Of a stretch of DNA of 64,000 nt, positions 21,624-31,232 are shown in pieces. The position numbers were made by a program, and so were the translations under genes. The notes beneath the pieces are model-generated. The model ran no database searches. It had not been told where the DNA came from and was given only the letters and a program-made list of their open reading frames with translations. Positions within the stretch are counted from its first letter, which is position 1; every line of letters begins with the position of its first letter. Where the stretch lies: NCBI GenBank assembly GCA_963762145.1, contig CAVXJS010000009.1, forward strand, positions 448,001 to 512,000, given 5' to 3'. The stretch comes from an uncultured Candidatus Rokubacteria bacterium (GTDB taxonomy: Bacteria > Methylomirabilota > Methylomirabilia > Rokubacteriales > CSP1-6).

Positions 21624-22229
21624 TCAGTGGCGATGGCCGGGAAGCAGCTCCCCCTTCGCCATGGCCAGGTGATGGGGGCCGTGGTGGCCGCCCTGCACCA
21701 GGAGCCCGGCGAAGCCGAGAGCGCGGATCCGCGTGACGGTCGCGGCGTCCGCGGGCTGCCGCGCGGTCACGGTGAGACGGAGGCCGCCGGGAATCGGCTC
21801 GGTCCTGGCGGTCCAGTCGGGCATGTGGTCCAGCTCGCGCGCGTGCGGCGCGAGCATGGCGCGGATGGCCCGCTCGGTCCGCGCCGCGCCGGTGACGTCC
21901 ATGGCCAGGCCGCCGGGTACCGCGTTCGTCTTCACGCTCGACCGCAGCACGATCTCGTTCATGTCGATCAGATGCTGCCGCAACCGCTCGAGATCGACGC
22001 GGCTCCAGTCGGTGCCGGGGTCGGCCTCCAGCCGGCGCACCACCTCGGCGATCGCGCCGAACGCGTCCTGCCCCGGCATCGTCGGCGCGCCCTCCGGCCC
22101 GGCCACGCGATGGCCGTGCGTCTGGTGTGGCGCGGCCGGCGGCGCGGGCGGGCCCTGGGCCAGCAGCGGCGGCGTGATCAGCAGAGCGCCGAGGCCGAGG
22201 CTCAGCGCGATCGTGATGGGTCTGGACAT
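21624..22229 (-). CDS. Secreted His-rich hypothetical protein (possible metal binding)
   Basis: Signal peptide, [24 protein letters not shown]...HRH; AGGAGG RBS. Confidence 0.75.
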
Positions 22230-22253
22230 CGTCCCCTCCTGGTTGCGCCCATC

Positions 22254-22904
22254 TTACCCCAGGGAGTCGGCGGCGAACGCCCGGACCCATCGGGCCATGG
22301 CCTCCACGTCGCCTCGCGTGACCGCGTCCGATCTGCCCTGGTCCGCGTGGTCGCGGAGGAGGGCCAGCCCGGTGATGCGCTCCTTCGAGCGCGTGCTGTA
22401 GGCCCCGGTCTTGGCCAGCTCCGCATTGAGGCTCTCGATCGTGGCCGTGGGCGGCGGGACGAACCCGCGCGCCTCGCACAGCTTCCGCAGGGCCCGCTCG
22501 AGCACCGCGCCGACCAGCGATGCGGCGGGAAGATGGTGCCCCGCCGCGAGCAGGCCCTCCGCCTGGCCGATGAAGCTGCCGAGCACGTCGGCCTCGATGA
22601 CGTGCCGGAATTCGAAAAAGTGGCCCTCTCCGAAGTCTTTCGCGGCCGCCAGGAGCACCCCTTGCAGACGTGGCACGTACGCGGCGGGCTGGTCGATCCG
22701 GGCGAGCTCCAGCAGCGCCCGGTAGTGCTCGGAGCCTTCGCCGCAGGCCCGGCGGATGAGGTTTCTCGTCCGCAGCATCAACTCCGCCGACCGCACGCGA
22801 TTGGGGAACTTCTCCTTCGCGTCGGACAGGAGCGACTCGCAGAACGCGATGAGCGCCTCGAAGTCCCGCAGGATAACCTCGCGGACGGGCAGTGAATCGC
22901 TCAT
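22254..22904 (-). CDS. DUF4145/HEPN-like domain protein
   Basis: [32 protein letters not shown] resembles the HEPN fold with a degenerate Rx4H motif. Confidence 0.6.
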
Positions 22905-23043
22905 TCCGGGCCCCATCTTAAGGGAACGCCTCGAAAAACCGCGTACTTTGCGTCCCCCCGCGTCGGGCGCGGTTGACATCGGTCCGCGCGGCGGCTACAG
23001 TCCCCGCGACCGCCAGATCGATGCTTCACGCGAGGCGGATCCC

Positions 23044-24180
23044 GTGCTGATCGACCTCCGCAACGCTCTCCGCCGGTTCTACGATGCCCAGGGATTCCTG
23101 CTGGGATCCGCGCTCTCGTTCTCGTTCCTGCTGTGCCTCGCGCCCCTGGCCCTGCTGTTCTTCTCGGGCACCGGCTTCCTGCTGGCCTCCGACCGGGCGG
23201 CCGGATCCGTGGTGAAGGTCGCGACCTCGCTGCTGCCCGGCTACAGCGCCGAGATCCTCGGGGTCCTGGATCTCCTCAACGAGGAGCGACGGGTGACGGG
23301 CACGCTCGGCGTGGTCGGCCTCGTCGTCTTCGCCACGCCGCTCTTCGCCCTGACGCGCACCGCCATGAACGCCGCCTTCCGGGTCGAGCGAGCCCGGAGC
23401 ATCGTCCACGGCTTCGCGTTCGACCTCGCCGCGCTCGGGGCGGTCGGCCTGCTCGCCATCGCGCTGGCCTCGGCGCTCCTGCTGCTCGCCACCTTGTCCG
23501 ACATGGCGGCGACCGTGGGGGTCCCGACGTCGATCCTCTCGAGCGTCTGGGTGCGGTCGATGGCGCCCGCGCTCCTGTACGTGACCGTGCTGGGGCTGCT
23601 GTTCCTCGTTTACCGCACTTTCCCGAACACGCCCGTCTCGACTCGCGCCGCGATCATCACGACCCTGATCGTCGCGGTGCTCTGGGAGATCGCGCGCCTG
23701 GCGTTCGCCGCCTACCTGACCCGCTTCGGCACCTACAACAAGCTCTACGGCTCCTTCGGTGTGATCGCGGCCACGCTCGCGTGGATCTACTACGCGACCG
23801 CGATCTTCGTGTTCGGCGGTGTGCTGACCGCCGTCCTGAGCGAGCGCTACCGTGGCGCGGTGCTCGATCCGCCTCCCGCGGCGAGCCCGCCGGCCGCCCA
23901 GACGACGGGGCCGCCCTCGCGCGTGCCGGCCTATCTGTCCATCGCACTCGGATCCGTCGTGGTCCTGTTCGCGGTTCAGAACGGGGCACCGGTGACCCTC
24001 CACTTTCTCGCCTGGGCCTTCGTCGACATCCCGCTCGCCGGAGTGGTCCTCGGCACGCTTGGCGCGGGCGCCTTGGTCGCGGCCGTGCCGCTCGGGATGG
24101 CCTACACCCGGCTGCGTTCCAGGCTGCACGCGGCGGAGGCCCGGCGGCGGGCTTCCGAGTCCAGCGACTACGAGCGGTAG
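23044..24180 (+). CDS. YihY/BrkB family membrane protein with C-terminal LapA (DUF1049)-like domain
   Basis: YRTFPN, WEIAR..F..Y, YNKLYGSFG, WIYY; tail LFAVQN..PVTLHFLAW..IPL. Promoter TTGACA-N17-TACAGT at 22973-23001. Confidence 0.82.
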   Translation: MLIDLRNALRRFYDAQGFLLGSALSFSFLLCLAPLALLFFSGTGFLLASDRAAGSVVKVATSLLPGYSAEILGVLDLLNEERRVTGTLGVVGLVVFATPLFALTRTAMNAAFRVERARSIVHGFAFDLAALGAVGLLAIALASALLLLATLSDMAATVGVPTSILSSVWVRSMAPALLYVTVLGLLFLVYRTFPNTPVSTRAAIITTLIVAVLWEIARLAFAAYLTRFGTYNKLYGSFGVIAATLAWIYYATAIFVFGGVLTAVLSERYRGAVLDPPPAASPPAAQTTGPPSRVPAYLSIALGSVVVLFAVQNGAPVTLHFLAWAFVDIPLAGVVLGTLGAGALVAAVPLGMAYTRLRSRLHAAEARRRASESSDYER

Positions 24181-24280
24181 GCTGCCAGGCGCCTCCTCAT
24201 CGAAGGTGGCCGCTCGGATCGATCTGATCAGGAGGGCCACGCGCGCCCACGGGAGCAGGTACGGGAGCTGGTTCACTCGA

Positions 24281-26150
24281 TCACCGGGCTGACGCTACAA
24301 GGTGAAGCCGAAAAATCGCGCCTCCGGTCGGGCTGTTGTCGACGAGCAGACGACCGCCGTGAGCGTGGACGATGGCGCGGCTGATCGCCAGCCCCATACC
24401 GAGCCCGTCGTGCTTGGTGGTGAAGAACGGCTCGAAGATCCGATCGCGGTCAGCTTCCGCGATGCCCTTGCCCGAATCGTGCACGCCGAGCTCGAGGTAC
24501 GGCGCCGACGCGGCCGATGTCCACACGGTCACCTTCCGCGTCGGGGCTCCTTCGTTCGCCGCGGCACTGATCGCATTGGTGAGCAGGTTCAAGATCACTT
24601 GCTGGATCTGCACCCTGTCGCCGTACGTGACCGGGAGGGCGGCCGCAGAGGAGAATTCGATGCTGACGGCATGCAGCAGTGCATCGTTCGCGACCAGGCG
24701 GATCGTGTCTGCCGCGAGGTCGTTAAGCGCGAGAGGCGTCCTGACAAACTCGGCCTTCTTGAGCAGTTGCCGCACGCGTTGGATCACTGCGTCCGCTCGC
24801 CGGTCATCGCTGACGATGTCGTCGAGACACGATCGCAACTCGTCGAGTGTCGGCCCTGCACTCGCCAGCAGGCGCTTCGCCGCTTGCGCATTGGTGAGGA
24901 TGCCCGTCAGCGGTTGGCGCAGCTCGTGCGCGAGCGATGCGACAAGCTGGCCCATGGCGCCAAGGCGGTCGAGATGAACAATCTGACTCAGGTGGAGCTG
25001 CGCGGCCCTCTCGGCCTGCCGTAGCGCTGCCTGGGCCTCGCGGCGGCGTCGGCGCTGAACGAGCAGCGTGACGATGAGTGCCGCCTGCGTCGCGATGAGT
25101 CCTGCCGCGCTCACGATATGCCAGCGGTATTCCTGCCAGAGCGTCGGCTGGCGGAAGAGGATCACGCTGCCTGGCGGCAGGCGATTCTCGCTGATATTCC
25201 ACCGTCGCAGCTCCCGCCAGTCGTACCGCGGGCTCAGAGCCGGGATGACCTGGGGAGGGAGCCTGGAGATCGGTTCCCCGCGCAGGACCCGAATGGCGAT
25301 ACGGGCCGACGCCTCGCCCTGGGCTTCGGCCTGGTAGAGACGGCCACCAACCAGCCCCAGCCCCAGCTGGTTCTGGTAGAGGCCATTGATGGGCGCGTTG
25401 GCCACCGCGTGGAGCTGCTGGAGCGCTTCGTCCTGGTTGTGGGTCACGCCCGACGCATCGCGGATGAGCAGGGCGAGGAGGATGAACGAGCGCGGAGGCA
25501 ACGTGGCCACCCGCTGCAGCAGCTCGTCGAACGACAGGTCGTTGAGCCAGCTGAAGCGTACGCGGTCCTGGAAGGGCTCGAACGCCTTCTGAAAGATCGT
25601 CGTCCAGAACCGCTCGAGCGGGGAGGCCCCGATCACGACGGCGATGTGGTTCGTGTCGGGCGCCAGCTGCAGAATGTCCTCGACCAGGCCCGCGAGGTCG
25701 AACGACTCGCCGACGAAGGTGGCGTTGCTCTTGAACGCGTCATCAGGCAGCGTGCGCCGGTCCATGCCGGTGTAGATGATGGGCGCCCCTGGAAAGAGAC
25801 GGTCCCGATATTTCACCACGAAGCGACCAGCCGGCGATCCGATCGGCACCACCAGATCGGGATGCCACTTCGCGAGACGCGCGAGCAGGAACTCGACGAA
25901 CGGGCCCTCCATGTCCGGCTGCGCGTAGCGGGCCATGTCCAGGGAGACCTCGTCCATGTCGACGCCGCTCCCCCAGCTCCTTGGTCAGCGTGGTCTGGAA
26001 GGCGGTCGAGTGCGTCGTGAACGGGGGCGCCGTGCTCCCGAAGGAGTGGACGATGAGGACGCGCTTGGGCTGAGGCTCCGCCCCGTTGGAGGCACTGGCA
26101 GTGAGCGCCAACAGGAGGAGGCCGAGCGATAGCCTGCCCCAGGTCGTCAT
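24281..26150 (-). CDS. Sensor histidine kinase with periplasmic ABC-substrate-binding-like domain, frameshift near 25970
   Basis: Signal peptide, KRVLIVHSF, YDWRELRRW, one TM, H-box AHELRQPL, NLLTNA, DSGKG, FEPFFTTK, GLGMGL. Confidence 0.88.
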
Positions 26151-26415
26151 TTGGCGGCGACAGAATCGCATAGAGCGAATGGCCCTACAAGGCTCGTGGG
26201 ACCGCTCCCAATCCCTTGCACAGGCTTCACCGCGTTCCAACCATTAGGTCCGCAGCATGAAGACTGCGACCGGGTCTGCTTGTGAGCTTACAAATCGAGT
26301 TGCTCGAACAGACCTATCCCGGATTTGAGGAACGGCTCATGAGGTTCCAGGGTGGCACAGAGCGAGCATCAGACTAGACGAGGCGCTCGGGGGCCGGCTA
26401 ACTCCGTATGGTAAA

Positions 26416-26459
26416 TGGTAGGCGGGGGAGGATCGAACTCCCGACCCCGGCCTTGTAAG
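26416..26459 (-). repeat. att site: duplicate of the 3' half of tRNA-Val (anticodon loop to CCA)
   Basis: TGGTAGGCGGGGGAGGATCGAACTCCCGACCCCGGCCTTGTAAG matches 28221-28265 except for one G in the homopolymer. Confidence 0.93.
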
Positions 26460-26552
26460 CGCGTCTCGCCCCTACCGGCTACTGTTGGTGATGCTGCTAT
26501 TCCGGTGACTTAGCGCTGACCATTGTTGGTACTGTTGGCCGGTTTTGGCACT

Positions 26553-26688
26553 TCAACTGGCACTGGTTTTCTGCGCCGCTTCGAGCATGCGCATGGCATC
26601 GCGCAGGTGACTGGGCGAGAGGTGCTGGTAGCGCATCGTCATATGCGGGTCGCGGTGCCCGAGGATCTCCATGATCGCCCGCTGCGGC
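26553..26688 (-). pseudogene. Tyrosine recombinase/integrase C-terminal fragment
   Basis: PQRAIMEILGHRDPHMTMRYQHLSPSHLRDAM = box II LGH-x5-T-x2-Y with catalytic Tyr; transcribed toward att. Confidence 0.85.
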
Positions 26689-26904
26689 ATCGTGTCGGCG
26701 GTGATGGCGGCCGGCACCGCGCTCGTGGGGTGGTTCCAGCGCGGCACCGCGCTCTACCGCAAGCGCGGCTACCGCATCGAGCTGGGGCAGCCGAACGACT
26801 ATTTCCTCAAGAACATGACCGCGATTAGGGCGGAAGTACGCGAGACGCTGGCGATCTACAAGCCCTCTGCTTTCGCGAAGGTGGCCGGGCTCACCCCGGC
26901 CCGA
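26689..26904 (+). pseudogene. HK97-family phage major capsid protein C-terminal fragment
   Basis: MAAGTALVGWF..DYFLKNMTAIRAEVRETLAIYKPSAFAKV matches the typical F.KN...IRAE.R..LAV..P.AF capsid terminus. Confidence 0.8.
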
Positions 26905-27189
26905 CGGGCGCCCGACCGAGAATCCGCTCGTGGTGGTATTCTCGTGCCGGCATGGCGACTTCTTGGCGCATCGAGTGCTCACCGTGCCGGAGGCTGGGTT
27001 ACGCCGATCGGCGCGCGGATGCGGATCGCATGGCCAAGGACCATGTTCAAGGCGACAGTACGAAAGCCCATTCCGTGACCGTCGAGCGCGGGTCAGCGGA
27101 CCCTCCACCGGTCAGCGGGCGACGCTAACGATGAGTCGCGCTCGATGACGTCCTAATGGCGTGGGCGCAGTGCCGCTGAGCTGACGCGC

Positions 27190-28073
27190 GTGTACCCAGC
27201 CACTTTCTTCGGTCTATTCCCCGCCTTTCCAAGGAACCTTCGTGTATTCGTCGCGATGAGCTTTGATCGGGCCTATGAGGCGCGTTGGCTCAATGTCATT
27301 TCGCGGGCAGTCAACCTCATCGAGATAAACGGGCAGCCGCTGGAGCCTCATCGTGTCGACTTTCGGAGCGCCGGCGATTCGATCCTGACGGAGATCCTTG
27401 ACGGAATCGCTCAATGTCGTACCTTCGTGGCCGATATCACATCGATTGGTGACATTGGAGGGCGACCAGTCCGAAACGCGAATGTCATGTATGAGGTTGG
27501 GCTCGCTCATGCGATGCGGCAGCCTGAGGAAGTGCTGTTGTTTAGATCGGACGAACACCCGCTAATGTTTGACATTTCCAATGTTCGTGTCCACCGGTAC
27601 GATCCCGATGGCTCGCCAGATTCGGCCACGGAGCTTGTCAGGGACAAGATAGCGCAATCGCTCCGCGAGATAGACTTGAGGAAGAATCTAGCGGTCAGAC
27701 GGATTGCGACGGCGCTTGACTATCGCAGTTGGATGACACTTGGGAAACGATGGGCAAGCCTATCCAGCACCCACAACTGGTAACCATGGGGCAGGCTGTC
27801 GCAGGAATAGCCCGGTCACAAGCGATTTCGCGGCTGCTTGATGTTGGAGCCTTAGAGGTTGAATTCGCCAAGATCTCCCCGGCGCTCGTCAGGGACACCA
27901 CGCGAAAGGGAGAAGACCTCGTCAGCTACAAGGTCACTCCACTCGGAGTAGCCCTTGTAGAGTACGCGGCCCGAGAACTGAACCTGCACTCACCCGACGT
28001 CCGCGAGATGGTTGAGGATGAGATCAGAAATCCTCCGAATCCGAATCCGGGCACGCCAAGGCAACAAGGATAG
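27190..28073 (+). CDS. Nucleoside 2-deoxyribosyltransferase-like (NDT/TIR-like) protein, frameshift near 27745
   Basis: VFVAMSF, RVD, ILDGIAQCRTFVADIT, NANVMYEVGLAHA, LMFDI. The two ORFs 27190-27783 and 27729-28073 overlap. Confidence 0.75.
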
Positions 28074-28220
28074 CAGGGTGCGGTGGGCGGATAGCAGGGC
28101 GGGACGGCAAGGTGACCAGACTCGGCTTCAGCAGCGTGCCCCACGGGCTTTCTGCACTGGCACTATTTCGGCACCGGGGGGAACCGACAGATCAGCGGTG
28201 TACTCCAGGGACCTGATAGT

Positions 28221-28296
28221 TGGTAGGCGGGGGGAGGATCGAACTCCCGACCCCGGCCTTGTAAGGGCCGTGCTCTCCCAGCTGAGCTACCCGCCT
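28221..28296 (-). tRNA. tRNA-Val(TAC)
   Basis: AGGCGGGTAGCTCAGCTGGGAGAGCACGGCCCTTACAAGGCCGGGGTCGGGAGTTCGATCCTCCCCCCGCCTACCA; 76-nt cloverleaf with encoded CCA. Confidence 0.98.
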
Positions 28297-28366
28297 ATCG
28301 TTGGAATATCCGAGGCTTCCACGAAGAAGTCTATCGTCTCCGAATTGATCGTGCGCGGAATTGTGC

Positions 28367-30169
28367 TCACGGACTCTCGGTGCGTCGCCGAGCGCTGCCT
28401 TTGAGGAGCCAGTCGATCGCCGCGGCAGGGTCCGAGGGCTCCGCCTGCGCCTCCACGGCCACTGGCTCGGACCGGCGCACCGGAGCCGGGATCGCGGCGT
28501 GCGTCTCGGGTGCCGCGACGCGGCGCGCCGGAATCGGTTGAGGCATGCGAGCAGGCCGCGGAGGCGCGTCCTGGACGACGACAGGCGTCGCAACGACCGG
28601 CTCGGCGGGCTTGCGGTCAACGGACAGGACCGGATCCCGCCGCATGCCTTCGTCGGGCGAGAGCAGAGCGTCGGGTCGCGGGCGCGGGCCCAGGAACAGG
28701 AGCGATGAGACGATCACGACTCCGCTCACGATCCCGGCGCAGACCCTGGGATGGGCGCGGGCGCCGGCGGGAATGGTCCCGACGAGGTGGCCGACGGCCC
28801 GGGCGGACGAGGCAGCGACCGCGGACATCCGTCCCCCGAACCGGACGAGGACGTCGCGGAGTCGCAGGGCCCCAAGCCAGCAGATCGCAATCACCCGGCC
28901 CGCCGCTCGCACCGATTCTCCGATGAAGCGCGACATCAGCCCGAGGAGCGCGCCGGCCGCCACGGCCGCGGCGCGCGCAGCCCCGTGACAGGCCATCATC
29001 AGCGCCGCGCCGAGCCGGGTCAGCCCGCGCGCCGAGCGCGCGCCGGCGCGTCCGGCGTGCGCGACCAGACGGGGAATGGTCCCGACGAGGCGGGCGACGG
29101 CCCAGCCCGCCGTCCGCACGGCCTTCGCGAGGGAGCGCCACACCAGACCGAGGATCGCGCCAGCCGCCCCGCCCACGGCGCGTCCGGCACCGTGACACGC
29201 GATCATCGCCGCCGAGCCAAGCCGGGTCAGTCCGCGCGCCGAGCGCGCACCGGCGAGTCCGGCGTGCGCGACCAGGCCGGGAATGGTCCCGACGAGGCGG
29301 GCGACGGCCCAGCCCGCCGTCCGCACGGCTTCCGCGAGGGAGCGCCACACCAGGCCGAGGATCGCGCCGGCCGCCCCGCCCACGGCGCGCCCGGCCCCGT
29401 GGCACGCCATCATCGCCGCCGCCCCGAGCCGGGTCAGCCCGCGCGCCGAGCGCGCGCCGGCAAACCGGGCGCGATCGACCAGGCCGGGAATGGTCCCGAC
29501 GAGGTGGCCGCCGGCCCGCGCGAATGGCCCAGCGAGTGACGGCACCCACCCCCCGACACGGACGAGGACGTCGCGGGTTCGCACGACACCGAGCCAGCAG
29601 GTCACCGCCACCCGGCCCGCCGCGCGCACGGTTGCGCCGAGGGATCGCGACACCAGCCCGAGAATCGCGCCGCCCGTCTCACCCGCGGCGCGTACCGCCC
29701 CATGGCAGGCGATCATCGCCGCCGAGCCAAGCCGCCCCGCCAGGCGCGCCGCGCGCACGCAGACGAACCGGACGCCGTCGACCAGGCCGGCGACGGCTCG
29801 AGCGGGTAGCATGACGAGCATCCGCAACCGCGACGCGAGCCAGGAGAGCCCGGCCCACGTGCCCTCGATCCCCCTCACACCCGCTCGCGTGGACACGACC
29901 AGCGAGCTCGATGTGAGCAGGCGGAGCCGGGTCGGCACGCCGAGGACCTGCGTCAGCTCGGTCCGGATGGTCTCACGCGCGGCACGCGCGACGATCGCCA
30001 GGTTGACGGGAGGCGGCTCAACGCTCGGAGGGGCGAGCGTGAACGACGCGCGCTCCGCCCGGCAGTCCGCGCATTGCGCGATGTGGACGTGCGCGAGCGC
30101 CCGTTCGGTCAGACTCGTTCCGTCGCGCGAAGAGACCGAGTGCTGCTCTCGAACCTCGTGGCAGTTCAT
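28367..30169 (-). CDS. Hypothetical protein: zf-HC2-like N-terminus, four internal repeats, TM helix, Pro-rich tail
   Basis: MNCHEVRE..HIAQCADC; four ACHG repeats; TM GIVSGVVIVSSLLFLG; terminal DPAAAIDWLLKG. Repeat lengths preserve frame. Confidence 0.65.
   Translation of the reverse strand: MNCHEVREQHSVSSRDGTSLTERALAHVHIAQCADCRAERASFTLAPPSVEPPPVNLAIVARAARETIRTELTQVLGVPTRLRLLTSSSLVVSTRAGVRGIEGTWAGLSWLASRLRMLVMLPARAVAGLVDGVRFVCVRAARLAGRLGSAAMIACHGAVRAAGETGGAILGLVSRSLGATVRAAGRVAVTCWLGVVRTRDVLVRVGGWVPSLAGPFARAGGHLVGTIPGLVDRARFAGARSARGLTRLGAAAMMACHGAGRAVGGAAGAILGLVWRSLAEAVRTAGWAVARLVGTIPGLVAHAGLAGARSARGLTRLGSAAMIACHGAGRAVGGAAGAILGLVWRSLAKAVRTAGWAVARLVGTIPRLVAHAGRAGARSARGLTRLGAALMMACHGAARAAAVAAGALLGLMSRFIGESVRAAGRVIAICWLGALRLRDVLVRFGGRMSAVAASSARAVGHLVGTIPAGARAHPRVCAGIVSGVVIVSSLLFLGPRPRPDALLSPDEGMRRDPVLSVDRKPAEPVVATPVVVQDAPPRPARMPQPIPARRVAAPETHAAIPAPVRRSEPVAVEAQAEPSDPAAAIDWLLKGSARRRTESP
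28760..29760 (-). repeat. Intragenic tandem repeats of 207 bp and 303 bp
   Basis: GAATGGTCCCGACGAGG at 28771, 29074, 29281, 29488 (spacings 303, 207, 207). Confidence 0.9.
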
Positions 30170-30584
30170 GGCCTGCAATCAGCCTTCGACCTACGGTCAG
30201 TCTTGGGAAGGTTCAACCGAGGGCATCGATGCCCTCTCCCTGTTCGCCGCTCAGCCCTCTCCGTCAGTCGGCGTAAGGTCCGTACCTTACCACGCCTCCG
30301 ATCGGGCCGCCCAGATGTCTGGCGGGAATACCCGGGGGAAGAGCTTACCGGGCAGCATCTGCCCCGCGGGGCCCGGACCTGGCCAGGGGGGACGCCCATT
30401 GGCCCCTCTTGAACGCCTGATAAGACACGCATAGGCCTTGCTCGGGGGTCGGGCTATGGCCAGCCCTGACACCGACGACTACGCCGGCGATCAGCCGCAG
30501 GGGCCCGGACCGGACGACGAGCCGCGGATCAAGCCGCCGGCCCGGCGGCGCCCCCGGCGGCCCGCACGTCAGTAACCGCTCCGG

Positions 30585-31232
30585 CTACTTTCGCTGCTGG
30601 TTGCTCGACAGCGCGGCGGCCACGCCCAGGCCGATGTAGAGGCTTCCCGAGATCCAGCGCTCGCTGGCCAGGAAGCGCGGGCTGCCGCGGAGCCACTGCG
30701 CGGCCGCGCCGGCACCGATCGCGTAGAGCGAGTCCGTGATCGCGCCCAGGAGCACGAAGACCACACCCAGCGCCACGATCTGTTCGCCCACGTGCCCGCG
30801 GGAGACCGTCACGAACTGAGGGAGGAAGGCGAGGAAGAACAGGCCGGTCTTCGGGTTCAGGACATTGACGATCACGCCGTCGAGGAAGGCGCGCCGCAGC
30901 CGCTTGGGCTCGCCGGGCGTGACCGCGCCGAGCGGGGTGCGGTCGAGGAGCCGCCGTACCCCGATGAAGATGAGGTAGGCCGCGCCCAGATACTTGACCA
31001 CGCTGAACGCGGTGGCGGAGGCGGCGAGCACCGCCGAGATGCCGGCGGCCGCCGCGAAGATGTGGGCCAGCGTGCCCACGTGCACGCCCAGCACCGAGAC
31101 TAGGCCCGCGCGCCGGCCCTGATCGATGCTGCGGGTGACGATGTAGAGGACCGCGGGACCGGGCGTCAGCAGCAGCACCAGCGCCGCGATCACGAAGAAC
31201 CCGAGGCTCGACCACTCCGGCAGGACCAGCAT
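30585..31232 (-). CDS. LysE/RhtB family translocator
   Basis: TPGPAVLYIV, VKYLGAAYL, NVLNPKTGLFFLAFLPQF. Confidence 0.93.
   Translation of the reverse strand: MLVLPEWSSLGFFVIAALVLLLTPGPAVLYIVTRSIDQGRRAGLVSVLGVHVGTLAHIFAAAAGISAVLAASATAFSVVKYLGAAYLIFIGVRRLLDRTPLGAVTPGEPKRLRRAFLDGVIVNVLNPKTGLFFLAFLPQFVTVSRGHVGEQIVALGVVFVLLGAITDSLYAIGAGAAAQWLRGSPRFLASERWISGSLYIGLGVAAALSSNQQRK

Follow-up and report, generated by a model that had tools for sequence, protein, structure and literature searches.

Phage-inducible chromosomal islands (PICIs) carry an integrase, a regulator, a primase-replicase, a capsid-modification gene and terS in a conserved order with no other structural genes, and some of them carry a single capsid homologue, such as Ccm of SaPIbov5. 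Cryptic or defective prophage remnants at tRNA genes show tRNA 3'-half repeats, truncated integrase or structural genes and accessory genes of lower G+C content, and deletional decay of prophages is common. The capsid-forming PICIs (cfPICIs) are modelled by the presence of at least nine of eleven core components and the absence of tail and holin, the core consisting of the integrase, a regulator, pri-rep, HNH, terS, terL, portal, protease, capsid, head-tail adaptor and connector (PMC10085698). In the account given there, they are reported in Proteobacteria and Firmicutes, and the Firmicutes variants include a protease-capsid fusion. The cis-mobilisable elements (CIMEs), as outlined in PMC5704250, are derived from integrative and conjugative elements or integrative and mobilisable elements and are defined for conjugative elements of streptococci. 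Here we describe a 1.76-kb relic at the tRNA-Val(TAC) gene of an uncultured Candidatus Rokubacteria bacterium, situated in a stretch of 64,000 nucleotides that was analysed as a whole (the window; positions 448,001 to 512,000 of contig CAVXJS010000009.1, assembly GCA_963762145.1, referred to as G000). In the reading that we propose, a small island with an HK97 capsid gene once integrated at tRNA-Val(TAC) and is now dead, its most likely ancestor being a phage satellite that encoded a capsid but no tail; we give this proposal an equal chance of being right or wrong. The features of the relic, in window coordinates, are the following.

26416..26460, no strand assigned: distal att core, a displaced copy of the tRNA-Val 3' half from the acceptor and T arm to the anticodon loop
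26545..26579, plus: putative distal arm-type sites, TTGGCACT at 26545-26552 and the degenerate motif TGGCACTGGTTTTCTGCGCCGC at 26558-26579
26553..26711, minus: tyrosine-integrase C-terminal stub, homologous over ~26580-26711, which keeps LGH and the RY(Q)H motif
26689..26895, plus: HK97-fold major capsid C-terminal stub of 69 codons, whose ORF continues to 27078 without homology
26952..27128, plus: 58-aa Cys-containing ORF with no Pfam or PHROG match
27190..27783, plus: N-terminal piece of the accessory gene, profile positions 1-189 of a ~290-aa family, TIR/nucleoside 2-deoxyribosyltransferase (NDT)-like
27729..28073, plus: C-terminal piece of the accessory gene, profile positions 190-283 of the same ~290-aa family, in another frame
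28158..28177, plus: putative proximal arm-type site TGGCACTATTTCGGCACCGG, the exact family motif, 43 nt from the tRNA 3' end
28221..28296, minus: intact tRNA-Val(TAC) gene, the 3' 45 nt of which are the proximal att core

The tRNA-Val(TAC) gene is the sole tRNA found in the window by ARAGORN; it scores 65.2 bits against Rfam RF00005 and is the only feature matched in an Rfam scan at E <=1, and a scan for promoters and terminators gave nothing exceeding shuffled sequences. The repeats at 26416-26460 and 28221-28265 are identical at 44 of 45 positions, the sole difference lying in a G-run of 5 versus 6 G, in which the distal copy is one G short, and only these two copies of the core are found by blastn in the 6.26-Mb, 25-contig assembly. 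They enclose 1760 bp (26461-28220) with a G+C content of 60.6%, compared with 69.7% window-wide; the accessory gene stands at 55%. A first-pass annotation of this DNA had pointed to a 44/45-bp duplication of the tRNA 3' half around ~1.76 kb and to the absence of tail and terminase genes after the capsid. Both observations are borne out, the second by Pfam and PHROG profiles, in which no island ORF matches a tail or terminase family. The relic is the remnant of a phage-related integrative element at tRNA-Val, with the two att cores still in place and an arm beside each, of which the distal one is somewhat eroded. In having retained attL and attR (44/45 cores, motifs on both arms) with only a stub of the integrase, it corresponds to the CIME state, in which recombination and transfer genes are lost. 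The likeness extends to decay at a tRNA or other att hotspot, often in tandem accretions, as described for CIMEs (PMC5704250). However, the parent of the relic is phage-related and not conjugative, and the relic is known from its sequence alone. It differs from defective prophage remnants in its unusually small size (1.76 kb) and in the preservation of both att arms.

The two gene fragments at the distal end are truncated at their 5' sides and meet back to back. The minus-strand ORF 26553-26747 matches PF00589 at positions 144-171 of 172 (E 4.3e-5, 23.8 bits), a score under the cut-off of 27.1 bits, as expected because only a stub is present, and matches the phrog_1 integrase at 3.6e-10. Its closest relatives are the tRNA-Val(TAC) integrases of G169 and G127; against the 393-aa G169 integrase at tRNA-Val, 48 aa align with residues 329-376 at 71% identity. 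The full tyrosine recombinase set (R...K...HxxR...H/W...Y in a ~170-aa catalytic domain) is lacking; in the alignment, the stub is without the HDLRH box and all the upstream catalytic boxes that its relatives carry, and its last 9 codons and stop fall in the reverse complement of the distal arm motif. Judged by this alignment, the stub is homologous to tyrosine recombinases but cannot be functional. The capsid stub at 26689-26895 matches PF05065 at positions 220-278 of 280 (E 4.7e-5, 23.4 bits, cut-off 24.2) and the phrog_10 major head protein at 1.1e-8, and over its whole length it can be aligned with the C-terminal ends of full-length capsids (42-58% identity). It is a fragment of the ~280-position HK97 domain and not a gene, although its homology is clear. 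The two homologies meet between 26689 and 26711, possibly with a few Ala-rich codons in common; there, both strands of an Ala-rich stretch read plausibly and microhomology at the junction is possible. The first-pass annotation, which had described the last ~45 codons of a tyrosine integrase fused near 26688 to the last ~70 codons of an HK97 capsid gene, agrees with these matches on the identity of both fragments and on the length of the capsid, and its junction is accurate within ~20 nt. For the integrase, the length holds as homology (~41-48 codons), but the usual C-terminal tail of the protein is also missing. Compared with the cfPICI model, the window has stubs of two components and none of the others.

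The same annotation had counted one cargo gene after the capsid. The segment holds not one intact gene but the 58-aa ORF and a ~290-aa gene in two frames. The frame switch lies between ~27739 and ~27756, and both pieces stand in a single frame in the intact 292-aa homologue of G034; the gene is broken in the window, unless the frameshift is an assembly error. A further copy, in G116, has two in-frame stops. The N-terminal piece is 62% identical to the G034 protein and matches phrog_3634 at 6.4e-10, with weak, sub-cut-off matches to PF10137 and PF05014. The family comprises at least 708 clusters, all unnamed or 'hypothetical' and without a Pfam domain. The AlphaFold2 model of the G034 homologue (mean predicted local distance difference test score 84.7) has an N-terminal flavodoxin-like domain, and its top Foldseek matches are bacterial TIR-STING, NDT, DNPH1 and TIR-APAZ (E 8e-5 to 5e-3, with template modelling scores of only 0.25-0.39). 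CAP12/Pycsar TIR and NDT clusters lie near the family in a protein atlas, and the glutamate of a Y-E-x-G motif is invariant across 42 sequences of the family; the protein has no PADLOC match, and the family profile has none in a PDB sequence search. We hypothesise that the accessory protein is an enzyme of defence type that cleaves nucleotides or NAD, and that its C-terminal domain may be helical or winged helix-turn-helix-like. The 58-aa ORF (WRIECSPC...ADADRMA.DH) has a 62% identical paralogue at G000:C11:958274-958423 (L001 14575-14724), in a region of low G+C at third codon positions near a contig end. Used as a marker for intact elements, it gave matches in only 3 of the 183 genomes of the order, G000 included.

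What links the relic to a wider group of elements is the 20-mer TGGCACTATTTCGGCACCGG, which was found by comparison with the element G007:C71 of the same genus, where both arms carry the same 20-mer. At two mismatches or fewer, it occurs in 30 of the 183 genomes, namely in G000, where the single match is the proximal copy, and in 29 of the other 158 genomes of the window's family, and in none of the 24 genomes of the order's other four families; a reversed-pattern control gave 2 matches. It is conserved, often exactly, over 15 genera of one bacterial family (loci L022-L051). In 11 of the 30 loci, a tRNA lies 25-66 nt from the motif, always with its 3' end first, and the tRNAs concerned are Val-TAC, Val-CAC, Asp-GTC and Glu-CTC, which points to one integrase family with several tRNA targets. 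The 18-nt core of the motif is invariant in the 8 aligned proximal arms out of 8, and the spacer to the tRNA is not conserved. Three half-sites are shared by the distal arms of the window and of the intact G007 element, and the arms of G131 and G133 align with them; the degenerate motif of the window, 97 nt inside the distal core, has one indel and a few mismatches relative to the consensus. We define the TGGCAC-arm family by three features: the motif TGGCACTATTTCGGCACC, placed ~45 nt from the 3' end of the tRNA; a further copy of it on the distal arm, in direct orientation; and the tRNA 3' half as a direct repeat. The window has motifs on both arms and the tRNA 3'-half repeat, and the same layout is found in G007, G131 and G133. 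The comparison of these loci indicates that the motif defines a family of tRNA-integrating islands. Because the motifs stand on both arms in direct orientation, and in view of what is generally known of lambda-type integrases, we interpret them as putative arm-type binding sites of such an enzyme. The alternative that the motif is mere integrase coding sequence was rejected, since it is present on both arms and in islands that have no integrase.

By analogy, the ancestor would have been integrated by a lambda-type tyrosine integrase bound to arm-type TGGCAC doublets on both arms, with a crossover in the anticodon-loop region that would account for the 45-nt identity block at each end. An internal deletion, in however many events, would then have started within the integrase gene and ended within the capsid gene, leaving the two 5'-truncated stubs face to face. 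The residue of this process would be both att cores, both arm sites, the 58-aa ORF and the frameshifted TIR/NDT-like accessory gene.

The first-pass annotation had suggested that full-length elements be sought in related genomes. This search gave three elements with a capsid and no tail, together with a related viral contig, and no intact progenitor of the relic.

G007:C71 (same genus as the window), 10.4 kb, L020 1446-11853: perfect 48-nt repeats of the tRNA-Glu 3' half enclose an integrase, two small ORFs, HTH_17 (AlpA-like), DUF3854, AAA_25, HNH and TerL, followed by the head genes, namely an S78 protease-capsid fusion and a portal, and by two unassigned ORFs
G132:C9, 7.9 kb: perfect 49-nt repeats at tRNA-Met, a distal tyrosine integrase, HTH_17, a 517-aa ATPase and HNH
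G132:C10, ~8 kb, in a tandem array at tRNA-Glu: a serine recombinase, a replication initiator and a capsid
IMG/VR contig, 12.2 kb: the motif beside a portal 68% identical to that of G007

In G007:C71, no tail or lysis family was found, and its gene content suggests a candidate for an apparently intact cfPICI-like satellite in a Rokubacteria-like genome. It has 8 of the 11 core components, a count that the exact profiles of SatelliteFinder could change, and shares the protease-capsid fusion noted for Firmicutes variants in the cfPICI description (PMC10085698). It differs in that TerS, the head-tail adaptor and the connector were not recognised and in that its host is Rokubacteria-like; the window differs further in holding two stubs only. 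The elements of G132 resemble single-capsid PICIs: in ~8 kb, each combines a recombinase with regulators and a replication gene and ends with its one HK97 capsid homologue, yet no TerS was recognised in either of them and their capsids are only 42-45% identical to the stub. The HK97 capsid gene is the last gene of G132:C9 and adjoins the tRNA, a topology as in the window; it is also the last gene of G132:C10, where it is 69% identical to the capsid of G132:C9. The two elements lie at L016 10850-18828 and L018 9525-17711, and the same genome has a full tailed phage on contig C2.

Several observations weigh against the descent of the relic from such a satellite. In 12 of 12 relatives of the integrase clade, the integrase is on the strand of the motif and, where a tRNA was found, reads toward it, whereas the stub of the window lies at the distal end and does not share the strand of the arm motif. 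The window accordingly departs from the family layout, in which the integrase stands by the proximal arm, on the motif's strand and directed toward the tRNA, and with the stub inverted, a simple deletion from the standard layout does not yield the structure observed. The claim of the first-pass annotation that everything between the stubs was deleted in one step cannot be demonstrated for this reason: the stub is opposite to its relatives in both strand and end. Either the att module already stood in reverse with respect to the genes of the ancestor, or the collapse involved an inversion or template switch, and we cannot tell which. An inverted att module would be functional and would permit a deletion in one step; as the two alternatives are indistinguishable, such a deletion can only be inferred. 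The idea that the integrase stub and its flank are a standard proximal arm in inverted position was rejected, the adjacent core copy being direct and not inverted.

The affinities of the capsid stub point in the same adverse direction. Searched against 5.8 billion proteins for longer relatives, the stub gave a single match, P0001, on a 1.9-kb contig (58% identity). Among the G132 capsids, it is nearest to that of the tailed phage G132:C2 (48%), and its identity to the capsids of the small elements is slightly lower (45% and 42%, over 66-69 aa). The capsid type of P0001 and G132:C2 sits in tailed phages (G132:C2 and IMG/VR contigs), with adaptor, head-closure, neck, tail-tube and tape-measure genes 3' of the capsid gene. 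Among the elements of the integrase clade examined, head genes are present only in G007 (n=1), the capsid of which is not detectably related to the stub, and an intact progenitor is absent from the 183 genomes of the order, from genome contigs and from metagenome contigs. The stub itself matches G132 as the sole genome of the order, has no relatives in genome contigs and has one weak match of 21 residues in metagenome contigs; with P0001 as the query, 2 distant loci were obtained in genome contigs and 18 loci in IMG/VR at 34-45% identity. To judge from their length, 69 residues cannot place the capsid stub firmly. The notion of an under-sampled lineage, put forward in the first-pass annotation, is upheld by this near-solitary capsid and by the named homologues of a host gene, which belong to Methylomirabilota and Rokubacteria: the close homologues of this amidohydrolase gene in the window are named Methylomirabilota (93%) and Candidatus Rokuibacteriota (83%). 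The window stretch is present in soil and rhizosphere metagenome runs.

These capsid relatives, with their order of TerL, portal, protease, capsid, connector and tail genes, are consistent with descent from a temperate tailed prophage of the ordinary kind at tRNA-Val. Its reduction would combine point decay with two deletions at the least, the first between integrase and capsid and the other between the connector, tail and lysis genes and the accessory region, and the frameshifted accessory gene, the degenerate distal motif and the capsid ORF that runs 60 codons past its homology are signs of such stepwise decay. This origin requires one deletion more than the satellite model, however; no tail genes are present in any integrase-family locus examined, and ORFs that are not of phage type start 57 nt after the capsid stub. 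We hold a tailed prophage to be a plausible but somewhat doubtful ancestor. The satellite identity that the first-pass annotation assigned to the relic stands in so far as tail-less elements with a capsid exist in relatives, and is weakened by the nearest capsid relatives being in tailed phages; satellite ancestry has good precedent in relatives, and the odds between it and a prophage ancestry are about even.

The anomalous orientation of the integrase stub shows more than plain deletion, and it could also be taken to mean that the integrase and capsid stubs come from two tandem elements, joined by a deletion or rearrangement over their boundary. Relatives do contain tandem arrays: in G171:C88, an integrase lies beyond the second of two motifs that are 16 kb apart, and the tRNA-Glu 3' end is present three times in the array of G132:C10. 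In the window itself, a degenerate motif (10 of 18) is located at 26353-26370, exactly 45 nt outside the distal core, and the segment 24181-26415 is missing at the same locus in G016 and G001; this segment may be an older tandem island. Against such a composite, tandem integration keeps one orientation and leaves the inverted stub likewise unexplained, and no third or older core repeat was detected in 22000-31000 at up to 11 mismatches in 35, nor by alignment in 24150-24300. We consider a composite origin unlikely. The segment 24181-26415 contains a sensor histidine kinase gene (24281-25957, minus), the N-terminal part of which is in another frame (ORF 25743-26240). In the same-genus genome G016, the site is unoccupied, and the tRNA lies 117 nt from the homologue of the window gene 23044-24180. 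In G001:C367 (L070 1501-1551), a displaced tRNA-Val 3' half lies 25-31 nt from a membrane-protein gene with no tRNA within 1.5 kb, and G001 also has an island at this site.

The histidine kinase gene also bears on the integrity of the assembly, being a second apparent frameshift 2 kb away from the relic. The junction, the frameshift of the accessory gene or the 1-nt difference between the repeats could in principle be errors of metagenome assembly: the genome is metagenome-assembled, 88% complete with 5.4% contamination, and its 25 contigs of up to 1.2 Mb suggest long reads, with which homopolymer errors would be possible. The G-run difference and the frameshifts of the cargo and histidine kinase genes could be errors of this type, but the junction of integrase and capsid is not of that kind. 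In six metagenome runs from two studies, one of which may be the source, contigs contain 0.92-0.94 of the sampled 31-mers of 26300-28400; moreover, the att cores and arm motifs at canonical distances are internally coherent, and integrase stubs and integrase-less islands recur in other genomes. An artefact as the origin of the relic is in our opinion highly improbable.

The preferred reading, that of a dead island of satellite ancestry, can be set beside the contents and the decay of the other islands of the family. Their cargo is diverse: a Prim-Pol and a Fic protein in G169, DUF3631 in G114, an island with a methylase, ResIII and AAA_21 in G171, and only a permease in G131 and G133. No phage structural (tail or head) domain was found in 35 proteins from 7 further family loci, and tblastn with TerL, portal and capsid queries gave nothing in 22 family loci. 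Reduced forms are recurrent. The 3.9-kb islands G131:C16 and G133:C7 at tRNA-Val(TAC) have both cores, both motifs and two cargo genes and no integrase; they are conserved in two species (L054 4085-8089 and L055 3698-7705) and carry an Asp-Al_Ex/TrkA_C permease and a 414-aa protein. C-terminal stubs of the integrase adjoin the tRNA, or the arm motif in loci that gave no tRNA, in G063 (131 aa), G066, G073 and G093, and a frameshifted integrase remnant lies at tRNA-Val(TAC) in G029, which belongs to another family of the order. In G019:C76 (L066 1282-1594), the 80-aa C-terminal stub of an integrase of a different type abuts tRNA-Val(TAC), which suggests that this tRNA gene is a hotspot for unrelated elements. 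The 16-kb island of G171:C88 (L056 2785-19000) lies between two arm motifs at tRNA-Glu and carries a DNA methylase, a ResIII helicase, an AAA_21 ATPase, a DUF6880 protein and a PRiA4_ORF3 protein; the integrase of a second element follows it, which indicates tandem accretion.

Apart from the stub, G000 has no integrase of this clade, the best other match being at most 35% identical, and of the capsid, TerL and portal types tested it has none besides the capsid stub. As there is no cognate integrase in the assembly, the cassette cannot move by itself. By analogy with CIMEs, which are movable only by a related incoming element (PMC5704250), it could be moved only by a related integrase acting in trans or by accretion with an incoming element. 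One may go further and suppose that the cassette is one of a set of recurrent non-autonomous mini-islands, each made of core, arms and cargo without an integrase, as in G131 and G133, and moved in trans by TGGCAC-arm integrases; we find this very unlikely. If true, the cassette would be a hitch-hiker on phage satellites, comparable to a miniature inverted-repeat transposable element or a CIME, that shuttles accessory or defence genes among Rokubacteria.

Taken alone, the relic is ordinary, since decay by deletion is what happens to mobile elements at tRNA genes. It is of value because it opens the way to a family of islands that integrate at tRNA genes in an uncultured soil phylum, and the wider family is of more interest, with its conserved arm motif, several tRNA targets, at least one cfPICI-like member and repeated derivatives that are without an integrase or keep only a stub of it. 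This putative satellite family is common in the Rokubacteria-like bacterial family of the window. It offers a natural series for studying the decay of satellites and islands into att-flanked cassettes, and candidate pairs of integrase and att site for a lineage without genetic tools. Our literature search found no report of phage satellites of Rokubacteria; in the accessible text of PMC5712423, prophage-like genes are the only such mention for these bacteria.

On the other side of the tRNA gene, the minus-strand ORF 28367-30178 has a G+C content of 80% and encodes a repeat protein of ~600 aa, the N-terminal start of which is Cys-rich and anti-sigma-like. The gene is variable among genomes of the same genus. 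Within it, at 28894-29500, stand three tandem units of ~207 nt that are 82-84% identical.

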